Positions 12,584-45,512 of a stretch of DNA of 64,000 nucleotides are shown piece after piece. Every line of letters begins with the position of its first letter. The stretch's first letter is position 1. Made by a program: the position numbers and the translations under genes. The notes under the pieces are model-generated. The model did not search any database. It was not told where the DNA came from and saw only the letters and a list, made by a program, of their open reading frames with translations. The DNA is from Microthyrium microscopicum (taxonomy: Eukaryota): assembly GCA_010405405.1 (NCBI GenBank), contig MU004231.1, positions 2,970,401 through 3,034,400 of the forward strand, in the 5' to 3' direction.

Positions 12584-14793
12584 TCACACAGGTACCGCTC
12601 TGAGACGGATTGGCACACAATTACTCGGAAGGCCATAGGTGATGGCCGAAAAATCAACATTCCGCCATTCGAGCTGAGCAAGGCCCTGGTGTTTCTCTTT
12701 GCATGCTATATCAAATTAGTTCTGAGCTTAGATTCGTGAAGTTGATATTACTTACCCAAAAAGCCCTTATTGACTCCACCCAACGACTCTTGAACCAACT
12801 CCAAGCTGTCTGTGAGTCTGAATCCAGAAGTGCCTGGCGAATTGTCGATCTTGATATCCTGCCAAGACAAAGTGGACTCAAATTCAAAGTCTATGCTGAC
12901 GGTGAAGCCAGTGGCATCAGCAGTGAACCAATGAAATTGGCCGTTCTCTATGTGGCCAACTTGACCTGTTTGTGGAAATGGCAGTAGAACTGCATCCCAT
13001 GTTCTGTCAGTGGCAGTGGCTATACTTGAAATGAAATAGTTGTTGACACCTATGGAGGGATAGCGATCGGTGACTTCCTCTGCTTTGAAGTAGTAATAGG
13101 TGGGTGGTGGTGGCGAGGGGGATGGTGTGCTTGACGAGGACGTTGTGGAACTTGACGTGCTTGTGCTGGAGGTTGAGCTCGAGGAAGAACTAGTACTTGT
13201 GCTAGAAGAGGAAGTCGATGTGCTTGTGCTAGATGTGGAACTGGTGGACGAGGAGGAGCTGCTACTTGTGGTGGACAAGCTCGTGCTAGAAGTGCTAGAA
13301 GTGCTAGAAGTGCTAGAAGTGCTAGAAGTGCTAGAAGTGCTAGAAGTGCTTGAAGTGCTTGAAGTGCTTGAAGTTGAACTCAAGGACGTTGAACTTGTAG
13401 ACGTTGAACTTGTAGACGTTGAACTTGTAGACGTAGAACTTGTAGACGTAGAACTTGTAGACGTAGAGCTTATAGACGTTGAACTTGCGGACGTTGAACT
13501 TGTGGACGTTGAACTGGTGGACGTTGAACTGGTAGATGTTGAGCTCGTTGAAGTTGAACTTGCGGTGGGTGAGCTTGTAGACGTTGAACTGGTGGACGTT
13601 GAGCTTGTCGACGTTGATTCCGTAGAGGTCGAGCTTGTGGACGTCGAGCTTGTGCTGGTGCTGGATGTGCTGGTGCTGGATGTGCTGGTACTGGATGTGC
13701 TGGTACTGGATGTGCTTGTGCTGGATGTGCTGGTACTTGACGAACTAGTTGAGCTTGTAGATGAATCAGAAGTACTGCTTGTGGTACTGGATGTGCTACT
13801 TGTTGGCGAACTTGTAGTGCTTGTTGAGCTGCTACTTGTCGAACTGGTGCTTGTCGAACTAGTGCTTGTCGAGCTGGTACTTGTCGAAGTACTGCTTGTT
13901 GAGCCAGTACTTGTTGAACTGGTGCTTGCTGTGCTGGTACTAGTTGACGATGTGCTGCTTGTTGAGCTACTACTCGTAGATGTCGAGCTCGTGGAGCTTG
14001 TGCTTGACGTGCTTGGTGAACTTGTAGAAACTGAACTAGTAGAAGTGCTTGAAGTGCTTGAAGTGCTCGACAAGCTGGTAGATGTGGAGCTAGTAGAACT
14101 TGTGCTTGAAGTGCTCAATGAGCTCGTAGAAGTCGAACTGGTCGACGTGCTTGAAGTGCTTGTGCTTGAGGTACTCGTCGAGCTTGTACTAGTAGAGCTG
14201 GCACTAGTCGACGATGTAGAAGAAGGCGATGATGTCGAAGAACTTGAGGTAGATGTAGAGCTAGTACTAGGAACACTCGTCGATGAGCTTGACGACGACG
14301 ACGATGTCGTCGAAGACGTTGTCGTCCTTGTCCTTCGCCATCTTCTCGAAGTACTCGTGCTGGAAGAACTGCTGCTGGAAGAACTAGTGCTTGTCGAGCT
14401 CGAGCTTGACGAACTGCTGCTGCTCGTACTAGTACTGCTGCTAGACGAAGACGAGCTCGTGGAAGTAGACCAGGTTGCACTTGAAGTACTTGGTGGCAGA
14501 TAAGGCGATGGGCTAGGCGGCGGCAAATATCCATGAGAAGTGCAAGACGAAGGGGCAGCATCGAGAGCTTGCTGTCCACAAGCACCGAACCCAACCTGAC
14601 AGCCAGTAAGGCAATGCTCTGGGCTTGTTCCACACCAGCCGTAACTAGAGCAACATTTGCCCTTGTTCGAGCCAGCACAGGTCTGGCCGTTACCACCACA
14701 TTCTCCATCAGTCGAGGGAACTAGGCCTGGACCTTGAGGCAGAGCCTGGACAAGACCAAGGGCCGTAGCCAGAAGAAGGTATGAAAGACGCAT
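12584..14793 (-). CDS. Secreted protein: hevein/CBM18 chitin-binding domain, long Ser/Thr stalk, C-terminal globular domain
   Basis: Signal peptide; STDGECG..C....CCSSYGWCG..PEHC..GCQ..FGAC; ~450-aa S/T tract; intron 12706-12755 gives end FLACKEKHQGLAQLEW...NCVPIRLRAVPV*. Confidence 0.9.
13140..14490. repeat. Coding minisatellites (9-bp gtgctagaa and 15-bp gacgttgaacttgta type units) encoding SST/STSTS repeats
   Basis: Visible tandem arrays, e.g. ~13284-13372 (9-mers) and ~13385-13560 (15-mers). Confidence 0.9.
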
Positions 14794-24927: not shown

Positions 24928-27900
24928 ATGGCGGACGACAGTCGCAATACTCGTTCAACGCCATCTTCGCGACGAAACTCTGATAGTTCTATGGTGCAGG
25001 CTACCGCAGGTGGACAAACATCACAATCTCCCAGTTTGGGCAGCAGTTCGGTATTGCCCGAGCCATCTCGACGGCGACCTGCTCCTCTGACCACTCAAAC
25101 GGAAGACTACGGTATGTCTATAACCGGGACACACTTGTTTTCATTACTTGATAGAAAGCATGATGTGACAACAACCAATGTGTTGGCTGCCGTCCGCTAA
25201 CTGATACTAGGTACCATACCGCGACAAGGACTTCAAACTACCTTGCCAAAGAAACCACCAGCCCCTCGACGAGTATCATCTCAATACCCACACAAAGGCC
25301 AAGAATTCTCTGTTGACGACGCTGAGGATGAAATTGACCCAGCGACCTTGGCGAGAGCAAAAAAGCTTGAACGACAAGCAAAAACAGCTACTGGCTCTAT
25401 CAGAAGCCAATCTACCCTACGGCGGCGACCAACAGCGCAAGTTCCATCCTTAGCCAGAGTTACCTCCGCCGAGGAGGAGCAAGAGGAGCTGGAACCAGAA
25501 TTAGAACAACGACCCATGTCTACAGTGCCCACGGTCAAAGATGATGATAGTGATCAGGAAGAGCTTATTGAACAAGTAGAAGAGCCCCTCGAAAATGAAG
25601 CTAGTGAAGAAGATGACGAAGATGAGGAAGATGATGGGGATCTGAGTGACGCCGAAAGCTTTACCCTGAAAGATCGCCAGGAAGCCATCAACGAAACGCA
25701 TCCATTTGGCATTCGCATCTGGAAACCAGCGTTATATAAAAAGAATCGGTCGGTCCAAAAGACAGCTGAAGACGAGATACACTCTAGCCCTGGCCTCAAC
25801 GTCAGTAGATGGTTGATACTATTCAACTATCTCTGGACTATTTGTTTCGGCTGGTGGCTTTGCTTAGTATGTTTTGCATGCGCCATTATATGCTACGTGA
25901 CAGGCGCCATCTCTAAAGACGCCATTGCGTACGGGCATCTACTGCTTGGGCTCTCTGGCTACCTCTTCTATCCGTTTGGAAAGTTTGTAAAGTTATTTCA
26001 AGAAGCTGCTTATGCGGAAGAAGACGAGGGTGATGGTCGGAGTATCAGCGAGTTCGAACAATGGCAAAGTGGAGACATTGAGGAAGGTCGATTAATCTTT
26101 GGGCCACCCACCATGAATCGATCTCTCATCGGACGACGACGGACAAGTGTAGAATCGACAGATGAGACTACCAGCCTTTTAGGGCGACATCGCCGTGGAG
26201 AAAGCCATACTCCAACAGGTCAATCAAAAACTCGCTTCTTCGGTAGAGGCAAGTGGAATATCGGCAGAGTGGTCTTCTTCATACTCTTTCATGTCATCAT
26301 GTCGCCTTGCATCCTGATAGCATGCGGTCTTTCTTGGTTCGGCGTTTTCAGCATTCCAATGGGTAAATTAACCTGGCTTATATGGGACCACGTTCGAAGA
26401 CATCCATTGGCTCTATCTTTCCATTCCCAAAACGGAGACGTGCGACAACCTAACGAGGCTCCTTCAGTTGTGCTAGTATGCACCTACCGGGCCGTGGGCT
26501 TGAAGTACTGGAAATATACTATCGATGGCACCAACATCTTCCTATTCAATCTACTTGGAATAGTTGGCTTTACCATTTTCGACTACTATGTCCTTGCAAA
26601 AGTACTACACGGCTCCTTCATCGCTTCACAAGGCCTAATCTTCATCTTGGGACTTTTATCAGTCATACCTCTGGCTTACTTCATCGGCCAAGCAGTCGCG
26701 TCAATCTCTGCCCAGTCTTCCATGGGAGTAGGAGCAACTGTCAATGCCTTCTTTTCCACTATTGTTGAAGTCTTCTTGTATTGTGTCGCTTTGAAGGAAG
26801 GGAAGGCTCAGTTGGTTGAGGGCAGTATTATTGGCAGCATTTTTGCCGGTATCCTCTTTCTCCCGGGCATTTCAATGTGCTTTGGCGCCTTGAAGCGAAA
26901 GACTCAGCGCTTCAATGTGAAATCAGCAGGTGTCACATCAACTATGATGTTGTTTGCCATGATTGGAGCCTTTGGTCCAACTCTTTTCTACCAAATATAT
27001 GGCAGTGTAAGTACCAGATAATCCACATTTCTATACACATATACTAATGTTCACAGCATGAGCTTAGATGCCACGATTGCAAGAACCCGTTGCCTGATGG
27101 TCGCGACTGTCGCCGCTGTTTCTTTTCCCAGACGCCCGCCGTACACGACGCTTTTTGGAAGGACGCCGTATTGCCATATACTTGGTTCGCTGCAACTGCG
27201 TTGTTCTTGTCATATGTCATCGGATTGCTCTTCACTCTTCGAACACATGCCGCCATCATCTGGACAACTGAGCTAGATGAAAAAAGAGTAGCAGAGCAAA
27301 GCCAAATGACCAGTCTCGTTCTGAACGCAAGCCCAGAAGCTTTGACTAGAACTCAGACTGGTACAATTGTAGCTCCCAACCGCGCTGATATTCGGGATAC
27401 GCAACTTTATCAACGAATTCTAGGTCAGTCCCTGAGACAGAATGGAGTTGTGGCCCCTGAAGGGAGTAGGAGCCCCAGTCAACCGATGAAATCGCCACAT
27501 ATTGTGCCACCAAAGGCTCGAGACGGCGATGTGCCAGGATTGCACTTGGAGCGTTTATCAGATTCCGAGAACCGACTTTTAACCCAGCAGATGGCAGAAA
27601 TGGCAGCAACTGCTGCAGCGGTCGCTTCTAGAGATGCGTCAACCAGACTAACAAGAAAGCCTTCACACCACCCATCAAATCACACCACCCATCCTACCCA
27701 AGCGATCGAACGACCTGCAACTACACGTCATACTACTGCAGCAGCCGAGATCGATGCTGCTCTACATCCGGACGCACATGGCGTTCAAGCCGGCGGGCAC
27801 GATGCTCCCAATTGGAGTAAGAAAAAGAGTGCCATCATCCTCATTACTGCGACTATTGCATATGCGATCCTTGCCGAAATATTGGTCACCACAGTGGATG

Positions 27901-41595: not shown

Positions 41596-42091
41596 GGTGG
41601 ATTGTATTCAATGGTGTGTTTGATCAGGACGAAGATAGCGAGAGGTTATATGGTGGATAGAGAGAGAGAGATTGATGTAGGGGTGAAAGTACTGTCTTGT
41701 TGAATTGTTCAACAATTGAATTACATTGAGGATTGAAGTTCAAAAAGTGGTTGAGCCCTAGACCTGAATGGCAGCTTCCGATCTTTACCAGCTCTTGGCG
41801 TCTGCAGGTGGAGCTAGATTTGACGCTAGTGGTTACACTTTGTTGCGCCTTCTTCATTTCCAAAGGTTGTGCTTCATGCTTGCTTCACCACCAACATCAT
41901 CTCAAGACAAACATATAGCCCGCACTGCCATCTTGTTCAGCTTACGCTCACCGAAACATCTGCCCCATCGCTTTGCCTGATCTGACTTCTCTGCTGTGAC
42001 TTGTGCGCTCTGTATAAGCCTTTGGCAGTTTGAACAGCACCATTTCGCGCACCCTACATGCTATATACTTGATCTGCCTACCTCGTGCCAT

Positions 42092-43421
42092 ATGGCTTCC
42101 TTTTCCGATGATAGTGTTAAAGCCAAGCTGAGCACGCTGAATGAGACTCAAGATGCCATCGTTAGTGTCGCTCAATGGCTTCTCTTTCACAAGTACGCTT
42201 TCGTCCAGCCTGATATGGAAGGAGACCATGAACTGACCACCTTTTAGGAGACATGCAGTCCGAACAGCAGAATTATGGATGGCGAAGTTGAACGATTCTT
42301 CCCCTACGAGACGTTTAAGCCTTATATATCTGGCCAATGGTACGCTCCACGAATTACGCTGCTTCAAGGTTACATACTAATTTACCTACAGAGGTCGTCC
42401 AACAATCTAAAGCTCGCAAAAAGGAGGACTTTGCGATTGCCTTCTCTCCAGTATGTCCATATACAAGAAACATTGCCTATGCTAACAACAACAGATTGTC
42501 GCCGAAGGCACCGCTATCGCATATAAGAATTCGCCTCTAGACATCCAAGGCAAGATCCGTCGAGTTGTCGAAGTCTGGCGCCAACGAGCCATCTTCGAAG
42601 AAAAGACCCAAGTCGAAGTCGAAGCCAAGCTCGACGGTACGCAACCTCTCTTCCATATTACATAGATCTGCTAACAACCCCAAGAACTCGACCGTATCCG
42701 CGCCACAACCCGAGGAGGTCGAGGCGGCGGCTCAATCTTTGGCTCTTCCGAACCCTCCATCCCCACGATCTTCCAACCCATCCTCGCTGCCAATAACGCC
42801 CTCACAAAAGCCGAATCAAAGGCCAAAACAATCGTCGCCACCCTCCAATCAAACCACGACGATGTGCGCAACAACACCTCCACCGTCCTCCCCATCAAAG
42901 CCGCCCAACTCGGCGCTCTCCTACAAACACTTAGCGAAGCAGAATCATCTGTCGCAGAAAGCTTGCACGCGCGCCAGAACCTACTCGCCAGTCTAGAAAA
43001 ACTCGTATCTACCACCAAATCCGCCATCACCGCAGACGAAGAACAAGCACGCAATCTGCAAGTCCAGCGCAAAAGCCTCGAAGACGAAAAACGCAACGTA
43101 GAAGACCGCATCGTCCGCGGCATATCCAACGGCGACGAGTCTGCATACGAGCCTCCTCGTCCGGACGCCGAGCCACTCACGCCACCACCCGTAGAAAGTC
43201 TAACTCCCGTCGGCAGTCCGCAGCCAGCAGAAGATTTCGTTCCAGCGCCAGCAGATCCGCGCCTAGCAAATGGCGCGAAGCACGGCCACGAGTCGAATGG
43301 CGCGGAAGACCAACCAGCGAGCAAGAAACGACGGGTCCAGGTATCGCATGAGTTTGCAGGTTTTCAGGACGATGATGGTGGTATTGATCCTGATGTCGCT
43401 GCGATGTTGGCAGAGGATTAG
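42092..43421 (+). CDS. RTT103: CID-domain RNA polymerase II termination factor (Rtt103/RPRD1)
   Basis: AKLSTLNETQDAIVSVAQWLLFH, LIYLANEVVQQSK, RVVEVWRQRAIF; introns 42193-42247, 42340-42391, 42451-42494, 42637-42684; first stop TAG 43419-43421, possible extension to 43676. Confidence 0.9.
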
Positions 43422-43604
43422 GAAGTCACCGTGAAAGCATTTTACTGTCGTTGGGTTGGGGTGGAGAGACTGTTGTTTCATGGCTTTGACTTGAGTGGGC
43501 TGGTCTTTGATGCGGTCGGGTTTGATGCTGATGTTGCGGCTTTGCTGGCTGATAAATGGGAGGTTGCTGTCAAGGCATTTTATTGGCGGTGGGTTGGTGT
43601 CGAG
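43380..43604 (+). repeat. Two 87-nt codon-aligned repeat copies (43380-43466 and 43518-43604) spanning the RTT103 stop codon
   Basis: GIDPDVAAMLAED*EVTVKAFYCRWVGVE vs GFDADVAALLADKWEVAVKAFYWRWVGVE, ungapped, same frame. Confidence 0.93.
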
Positions 43605-43911
43605 GCTGTTCAGGTTGTGAGGAAATGGAAAGACGGCGGGAATGATACCAGTGAGATAAGCTTGGGAGTCGGATAGCTGGATGATAGTGTTGATAAAAAA
43701 AGTACAGCAGATGGACGTTGTTTATGATACCGGGTCATGGTCATTATTTATTTTATTCAATAACACAGTTATTTTCATGACTTCCGTTCAATGTCAGATT
43801 GCAAGCTGCATCAAAAGATGTATTCTAGGAGTTTAAAGTACGTATTCTATCTGTTCAAATGCCAGGGTATCTTAATACTCCCCGTAACGCCGAGTCCAAG
43901 ACCATAATAAG

Positions 43912-45237
43912 CTAAACCAGAGCTCGCAAAAAGAACCAGCTGGCCAATCCTCCGACGACGCTTCCAACGAGTATCGTCTGTCCTTCCCTCGTCGTCGCTA
44001 GGAACATCACCACACCCACCACTAGTTCTCTCCTGGCCGCCCATGCCCGCTCCTCCGCAAAACGTGGATTCAATGGATATGGCGCCTCAAGCACATCCTT
44101 CCCCCCAGCCGATACACTGACCGCCAAAGCAACCGGCCGGTGGTCTGAGGTCGCTTGGATCGGCAGCGCATTGTAAGTATGTACTTGCACACTTCGTGCC
44201 TGTGTGTACAGAATACGATCACACCAGCTGGGGAAGCGATGCGTTGCCCAGAACCAGTGGCCGTCAGGATCATCGGTTGACGCGGTGGTAATGGGGCCGA
44301 CGGCGCTGTGAGCGTATTTGTAGGTCGGTGCAAAGGTGATGGCCTGTTCCGCGAAAGACTGGAGAACAACTCCGTCGGAGCGTTGCTGCATAAGTTGGTC
44401 GCGGGCTAGAAGCTTGCTTAGGTGGTGAGGTGAGTTGGTATCGTTGGTAGGCTGTGGGAAGTTCTCGATGTCTCCCGGCATAGGACGTGACGACGAGGTG
44501 CGGTAGTTGAGATCACCGCCGAAGAATATAGGACCTGCGGTATCGTAGAGCCCTTTAGGCTTCGAGCTCCGTGACATGGGTTTCATGGTATTTAGGAGGG
44601 CGGTTGTATCATCATCGTCCTCGTTCTCATTGCTGGCTGGATCCGCATTACCAGCTCCCCCCAAAGTCGTGTCATACACAAATCCCAGATTCCTCACTAT
44701 CCGCTCCCAATCTTCCCTCCTTCGCTCGATCGCAAACTCATGCGGCGCTAAATGCGCTGCCACCAGCGTGACTTCTTCAATTCCTCTGTCCATCTTCACA
44801 CCCAGCCGAGCGCCAACTGCACCTTTATTCCCCGTCTGCCATACTCCACAGCCTGCGCCGGCCGTCTGTACCCATGCAACATCCACACCCGCACGTATAA
44901 ACACCATTAGACCCGTCATTCCCACATGACGAGCCAAGAGCAGCGAATACTCATCCGCTTCCACAGGCGTCTGATGAGCGCGAAGTCTTCCTTCCGTAGC
45001 GAGCGCTACACATTGCGTGAAAGCGTCAAAGTAGGGCGTAAGCAGTGCACGGCCGAGGAATGCGGGCGCAAGAGGTGCTATTTCTTGGATGGAGATTGCG
45101 ATGATAGCAGGTAGCAGGGTGGTGGAGGGAAGGGCGGAGAAGAAATCGCTGGCGAGAATGGAGGGGTCGATGGGAGTACGGGCGGTGTTGAAGGTTAGGT
45201 AGTAGATGTCGAGGGGAGCGGAAGATGGAGTGGCCAT
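43912..45237 (-). CDS. Inositol polyphosphate 5-phosphatase with C-terminal hydrophobic tail (Inp54-like)
   Basis: LTFN, IQE, GNKGAVG, VAAHLA, FGGDLNYR, FAPTYKY, PSWCDRIL, SDHRPV; likely ATG 45237. Confidence 0.92.
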   Translation of the reverse strand: MATPSSAPLDIYYLTFNTARTPIDPSILASDFFSALPSTTLLPAIIAISIQEIAPLAPAFLGRALLTPYFDAFTQCVALATEGRLRAHQTPVEADEYSLLLARHVGMTGLMVFIRAGVDVAWVQTAGAGCGVWQTGNKGAVGARLGVKMDRGIEEVTLVAAHLAPHEFAIERRREDWERIVRNLGFVYDTTLGGAGNADPASNENEDDDDTTALLNTMKPMSRSSKPKGLYDTAGPIFFGGDLNYRTSSSRPMPGDIENFPQPTNDTNSPHHLSKLLARDQLMQQRSDGVVLQSFAEQAITFAPTYKYAHSAVGPITTASTDDPDGHWFWATHRFPSWCDRILYTQARSVQVHTYNALPIQATSDHRPVALAVSVSAGGKDVLEAPYPLNPRFAEERAWAARRELVVGVVMFLATTREGQTILVGSVVGGLASWFFLRALV

Positions 45238-45512
45238 TGCTGGACAGTGGGAGATGCGTCGAGATGGGAGTGGTGGTGATGTATACGGGTTGGAGGGAGT
45301 GATATTTGGATTGGTTGAAGACGTCAGGGGAGAGCTTGGAGATCTGCACTCCGGCGTCATTGGCGATGGGTGGGGTTAAATCGTTAAATCGGGATCAGAG
45401 TACATTTACTCCAAGTAAGCTTTGGAAGAGACAATTCTAGCATTTGACTCGATTTGAGTGGATTTGTATATCTATATTTGCAATTTACTGATCATTCATA
45501 CCATAATTGAGA

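Follow-up and report, generated by a model that had tools for sequence, protein, structure and literature searches.

Protein sequence encoded behind a stop codon has been described for readthrough genes, among them fungal peroxisomal enzyme isoforms (available text of PMC4207609) and Drosophila genes (available text of PMC3840789), and for genes with stop-loss A-to-I editing in the Sordariomycetes, where 403 such genes are given for Fusarium graminearum, with DBF2 as the worked case (PMC13123824, in the part available). The preferred fungal A-to-I target is described as a UAG with U at -1 (available parts of PMC11156358 and PMC13123824), and the Ame1-Tad3 interaction is reported to have originated in the Sordariomycetes (PMC11087585, in the part available). 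[quoted passage not shown]

The RTT103-type gene analysed here, from Microthyrium microscopicum, shares with the readthrough genes a retained stop, an open downstream frame, a coding pattern of substitution and, as a prediction, a short and a long isoform from one message. Unlike the fungal readthrough cases, which have a short UGA context, it has a UAG followed by G, and unlike readthrough genes it has no predicted structure downstream of the stop and no SKL-type peroxisomal signal, and its coding signature comes from an internal duplication rather than from a cross-species alignment. With stop-loss editing in the Sordariomycetes it has in common the UAG with U at -1, an extension whose frame stays open and a TGG counterpart, but it belongs to a different fungal class, one in which editing is undocumented in the available part of PMC11087585. 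The stop-loss tails of Fusarium are disordered and destabilising (PMC13123824, in the part available), whereas in this gene a 15-residue, aromatic-rich segment has been duplicated and 13 of its 15 residues have been kept. Such conservation might fit a specific role in binding or folding better than it fits tails of the disordered, destabilising kind. RTT103 terms were not found in four supplementary files of PMC13123824.

The gene lies in a 64,000-nt stretch of DNA, referred to below as the window, whose own numbering is used for all positions (Table 1). The host is a Dothideomycete of the order Microthyriales and not a Sordariomycete. The 376-aa product was 100% identical to P0001, a DUF618/CID protein of M. 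microscopicum, and its N-terminal part (residues 8-122) matched the CID family PF04818 of Pfam with an E value of 4.3e-33 (score 114.5, cut-off 23.9). There were 38 protein matches to the product, the JGI relatives carrying the name "regulator of Ty1 transposition protein 103", and its C-terminal half aligned to relatives with 42-54% identity. By sequence it is an Rtt103 orthologue, and both its domain and its orthology place it among the Rtt103/RPRD CID factors. The N-terminal CID and helical region of yeast Rtt103 and of animal RPRD1A/B are common to the M. microscopicum product. The available text of PMC11972402 gives no function for the extreme C-terminal motif of filamentous-fungal orthologues, and the extension behind the stop was absent from those Rtt103 orthologues whose C-terminal loci were examined.

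Table 1. Positions of the features at the RTT103 locus, in the numbering of the 64,000-nt window
Feature	Position	Strand	Details
RTT103-type CID-domain gene	42092..43421	+	376 aa, five exons, TAG included
RTT103 exons	42092-42192, 42248-42339, 42392-42450, 42495-42636, 42685-43421 (including TAG)	+	introns GT..AG
Repeat copy 1	43380..43466	+	C-terminal motif (13 codons), TAG, 15 post-stop codons
TAG stop codon	43419..43421	+	ancestral stop position; context GAT TAG GAA
In-frame open extension	43422..43676	+	84 sense codons and TAG (43674-43676), no in-frame ATG
Repeat copy 2	43518..43604	+	diverged C-terminal motif, TGG at 43557-43559, 15 codons that correspond to those behind the stop in copy 1
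Exo_endo_phos2-family gene, convergent neighbour	43912..45375	-	Pfam PF22669, E 3e-43

Two copies of a 29-codon unit, without gaps and both in the RTT103 frame, lie at an offset of 138 nt (46 codons) at the 3' end of the gene. The annotated protein ends in GIDPDVAAMLAED, followed by the TAG, so that copy 1 (43380-43466) translates as GIDPDVAAMLAED, the stop and then EVTVKAFYCRWVGVE, and copy 2 (43518-43604) translates without interruption as GFDADVAALLADKWEVAVKAFYWRWVGVE. The TAG of copy 1 (43419-43421) pairs with a TGG of copy 2 (43557-43559). Seven of the 29 codon pairs were identical, 14 differed synonymously and eight differed with a change of residue; in other words, 21 of 29 residues were equal at a nucleotide identity of 72%. 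The 24 base differences (10 transitions and 14 transversions) were distributed 6/1/17 over codon positions 1, 2 and 3. Behind the stop the bias was sharper, with 11 differences split 1/0/10 and 13 of 15 residues equal. In simulations, at least 17 of 24 differences fell at one codon position with P = 7e-5, at least 10 of 11 post-stop differences did so with P = 2e-5, and at least 21 of 29 residues were retained after 24 random substitutions with P = 5e-5. Four of the other five reading frames retained just 8-10 of 28-29 residues between the copies. The fifth, the antisense frame that shares its third positions with the RTT103 frame, kept 19 of 28 residues, but stops interrupt it twice in copy 1 and once in copy 2. 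A longer antisense open reading frame (43263-43721) was considered as the source of the conservation and was rejected, the copies sharing just 8 of 29 residues in its frame.

Tandem Repeats Finder reported no repeat at the locus because the copies are too diverged, and a local DNA alignment recovered the repeat (43384-43466 against 43522-43604). A gapped protein alignment, itself weak, suggests that the duplicated unit starts slightly farther upstream, at H-x-F...G-F, with an in-frame indel. The first-pass annotation of this DNA had described two ungapped copies of 29 codons, the pairing of TAG with TGG, 21 equal residues and 84 open codons, all of which were reproduced. It had further read the predominance of synonymous divergence as selection on protein behind the stop, and the simulated probabilities of 2e-5 to 7e-5 bear this out. 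Its suggestion that the RIP signature might be involved did not hold for the differences between the copies: RIP was rejected as their cause, since 14 of the 24 are transversions.

The extension behind the TAG is open for 84 codons. Among all stop-to-stop intervals in the 64,000-nt window, 3.8% reached this length, and behind the 32 open reading frames of at least 200 codons in the window the median open stretch was 18 codons, with 84 or more in three of the 32. The extension has no in-frame ATG, and translation must therefore enter it from the RTT103 frame upstream. Long open stretches were also seen behind a 606-codon open reading frame on the plus strand, with its TAA at 27019, which was followed by exactly 84 open in-frame codons, and behind a 201-codon open reading frame ending at 14117 on the minus strand, which was followed by 214 open codons; either may be an exon of an intron-split gene.

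Taken together, the repeat, its mostly synonymous differences and the open frame lie far beyond chance and therefore indicate selection at the protein level downstream of the annotated stop, a signal that comes from a single paralogous comparison inside one genome. Third positions differed in 17 of 29 codons, which is near saturation, and 13 of 15 post-stop residues were still kept. Nearly saturated synonymous sites alongside retained residues mark the duplication as old; both copies, the 15 post-stop codons among them, were thus translated during most of its existence.

Contigs of four public runs were compared with the window over positions 42050-43950. The contigs of X1, a DNA run that is probably the source sample, spanned the whole of this stretch with zero differing letters, and those of X6, a low-depth DNA run from a different study, covered 43281-43574, also with zero differing letters. 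X5 is RNA, because one of its contigs joins four GT..AG introns. This contig (record 10; 1438 nt), in which all four RTT103 introns are joined, continues unspliced from 42684 to 43563, crossing the stop and copy 1 and reaching into copy 2, with zero differing letters. The 5' sites of the four introns are GTACGC in three cases and GTATGT in one, all with G at position 5, and the distance from branch site to AG is 10-12 nt. Additional X5 contigs cover 43565-43624 and run from 43595 onward into the convergent neighbour. The whole extension is covered by RNA contigs, which are unstranded, do not display the ends of messages, and overlap the convergent transcript from 43595 rightwards. Sequencing error, which the first-pass annotation had kept as an option for the TAG, is excluded, the codon being present in X1 DNA, X6 DNA and the spliced RNA contig of X5. 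An A-to-G change at 43420 had been proposed as a check, and the answer obtained is that of a consensus: X5 carries A there, on an unbroken path, in a single run of unspecified tissue from whose contigs rare variants are dropped.

The minor X5 contig at 43565-43624 (depth 17, as against 1177) had one differing letter near 43594-43595, a position that is estimated, and this letter may be an error. The genome letter there is T, and the difference was therefore not taken as A-to-I. The X5 contig that contains the neighbouring Exo_endo_phos2 gene (record 13) extends left to 43595 and thus overlaps the extension region. The RNA contigs linking RTT103 and its convergent neighbour overlap at 43595-43624, and the two transcripts may overlap tail to tail.

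If the stop were removed by alternative splicing, excision of an 81-nt phase-0 intron, which would begin with the GT at 43341 and end with the AG at 43420-43421, would connect the protein body in frame with the extension. Both sites are present and in frame, a branch-like CTGAT lies at 43390-43394, and base composition shifts at about 43341. Against this, no joints besides the four proven introns were found in the X5 RNA contigs, from which rare variants are dropped, and the main contig runs through this region unspliced; the 5' site, GTATCG, is without the position-5 G common to the four proven introns; and 27 nt separate the branch-like site from the AG, well outside the 10-12 nt of the proven introns, with intervening AGs that would compete. 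Splicing is accordingly a very improbable source of the coding signature. To an equally slight degree could the locus be a neutral tandem duplication in a 3' UTR whose differences fall at every third base by accident. The pattern was picked out of a very large scan, in which rare patterns are to be expected, but a position bias with P of 2e-5 to 7e-5, an open frame of uncommon length, and the retention of the orthologues' motif by copy 2 as well as by copy 1 all speak against accident, which we find hard to credit. The observation itself, consisting of the repeat, the codon-position bias and the open frame, is solid, and neither chance nor RIP, error or artefact accounts for it.

The last exon was aligned with 12 relatives (42-54% identity), of which 10 end exactly in the TAG column; of the two others, one is a truncated sequence and one stops a single residue short of that column. 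In more distant orthologues from named species the protein ends no more than a few residues from the same C-terminal motif. The first 13 codons of copy 1 correspond to this conserved motif, and copy 2 keeps its core, G-x-D-x-D-V-A-A-x-L-A. With 10 of 12 orthologues ending in its column, the TAG is therefore the ancestral stop and no misplaced nonsense codon. Judged from these alignments, the RTT103 protein has ended at this position across Dothideomycetes and Eurotiomycetes.

No relatives of the extension itself were recovered. When 1.84 billion representative proteins were searched by HMMER with its 84 residues, no related match was obtained; six matches were rejected as spurious, being long proteins with unrelated repeats of their own, matched at 26-32% identity in 4-14 stretches each. 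A word-based search of a 5.8-billion-protein collection with residues 236-332 of the read-through last exon returned 1256 candidates, none with E <= 1, and searches with the extension found no family in Pfam and no usable match in the ESM Atlas. A metagenome scan yielded at least 15 orthologue loci with 28-43% identity, and the closer relatives P0002 to P0011 (44-54%) were not among the loci listed. Fourteen of the 15 listed loci include the C-terminus, with TGA, TAG or TAA as stops; in 13 of them the frame closes 2-42 codons past the stop, and the fourteenth is open for 18 codons up to the end of its contig. With tblastn, no similarity to the extension was found behind the stops of these 14 loci, which, at 28-43% identity, therefore test distant conservation only. 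As far as it can be tested against distant orthologues and protein libraries, the extension appears to be lineage-specific. An alignment of orthologues had been suggested at the outset, and its two halves came out differently: the TAG column is conserved, and the 14 distant loci listed hold no similar extension. AlphaFold2, run on the last 128 residues of the read-through product as a single sequence without alignment, gave a mean pLDDT of 42 and was uninformative.

Our preferred reading, held with about even confidence, is that an old in-frame tandem duplication spanned the stop and that the part downstream has been translated through bypass of the UAG, with the stop either kept throughout or subject to a mixed history. 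A tandem duplication of 138 nt (46 codons) at the 3' end of RTT103 would have taken in the ancestral stop together with what follows it; its period being divisible by three, it would have been in frame. From then on the two copies would have diverged almost solely by synonymous changes in the RTT103 frame, with the 84 codons past the TAG read as protein over most of that span. The ancestral stop would have been retained and bypassed in a fraction of the messages or under some condition, and the second stop, after the duplication, would have become the fixed TGG of copy 2. In the mixed history, a change from TGG to TAG would have been tolerated because the codon was bypassed. The predicted products are the short canonical protein and a long isoform with the C-terminal motif twice and two copies of the W-, F- and Y-rich segment of 15 residues. 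The stop is probably bypassed at times, giving the longer protein, either by near-cognate readthrough of the UAG or by editing of UAG to UIG, decoded as Trp. We infer present-day bypass, its mechanism and a role for the long isoform from the sequence.

The features expected of readthrough are divided. The 84 open codons carry a protein-coding pattern of substitution (1/0/10 behind the stop, P = 2e-5), and folding of 43419-43560 predicted no stimulating structure downstream of the stop (z = -0.26). Leaky readthrough contexts include UGA-CUA and UAG-CAR-YYA, and the context here, GAT TAG GAA GTC, matches neither and is not known to be leaky. SKL-type motifs are peroxisomal signals; the extension ends in GVG and is without such a signal.

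A history in which the stop is now fully effective accounts for much of the same evidence. The ancestral stop would have changed to TGG, and a tail would have been gained, duplicated and selected, until a recent change from TGG back to TAG left an undecayed relic in the 3' UTR. This would explain the coding signature without recoding, and it agrees with the TGG that copy 2 has at the corresponding codon, with a stop context that is not leaky, with an RNA consensus contig in which no editing is visible, and with the absence of the extension from the relatives searched. It demands, however, that the stop be lost and regained at the very codon where 10 of 12 orthologues stop, and that the regain be recent relative to a near-saturated duplication, since 84 codons remain open; the TAG is also present in all three studies compared, which possibly represent one strain. 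Because this course of events requires the same codon twice and a late regain, bypass of the stop or the mixed history is favoured. The relic remains a serious rival, if an unlikely one, and the recent nonsense allele that the first-pass annotation had allowed is retained in this form, although the orthologues that end in the TAG column make it less likely than was first supposed. The same annotation had preferred sexual-stage A-to-I editing as the mechanism, by which the UAG would become UIG and be read as Trp, matching the TGG of copy 2. The U at -1 and the UAG triplet (43416-43424, GAT TAG GAA) are those of the preferred fungal target, TGG at the aligned codon is the usual hard-wired counterpart of an edited UAG, and with flanks of 15-20 nt the A folds into the 4-nt loop of a weak 4-bp stem. 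With flanks of 30-40 nt, however, the A is paired (P of about 0.9) and the region has a z of 0.14 against shuffles, which leaves no convincing hairpin; the RNA contig carries A at 43420, in one run of unspecified tissue with rare variants hidden; and the host, by taxonomy a member of the Dothideomycetes (Microthyriales), lies outside the lineage in which the Ame1-Tad3 interaction is reported to have originated. Trp is among just eight sense codons that lie one step from TAG, and the match to TGG is therefore weak evidence. Editing in sexual tissue is thus weakly placed and looks improbable, and we are equally doubtful of the broader proposal that in a Dothideomycete the Rtt103 UAG is recoded to Trp, by editing or otherwise, giving a long isoform that is made conditionally and has a second C-terminal motif.

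Few fungal cellular genes have solid evidence of protein-level selection behind the stop, and here that evidence is an internal control, the duplicated copy, which is independent of other genomes. The locus would join the genes with readthrough or stop-loss extensions as an unusual member, with its non-leaky UAG-G, a host class without documented editing, and a duplication signature that spans the stop. Bypass of the stop would mean that a hidden long isoform exists for a conserved Pol II termination factor. The locus also allows stop-loss editing or efficient UAG readthrough, neither of which is documented in Dothideomycetes, to be tested cleanly at a single site. Recoding to Trp, if true, would mean stop-loss editing or an equivalent outside the Sordariomycetes and Pezizomycetes, tied to the control of transcription termination. 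If, on the other hand, the stop was recently regained, the locus would be a dated case of a tail that was gained, duplicated and switched off at the original stop.

A search of the 64,000-nt window for tRNA genes found none. Strand asymmetry was strong and patchy across the window (1-64000): the absolute GC skew exceeded 0.25 in 30% of 200-nt bins, as against 1% after shuffling. The patches, each a few hundred bases long, flip sign within genes independently of the coding strand; around RTT103 they are C-rich at 42650-43250, G/T-rich at 43341-43676, C-rich at 43850-44150 and G-rich at 44150-44600. At third codon positions of RTT103, C makes up 47% in the body of the exon, and over the last 26 codons T accounts for 54%.
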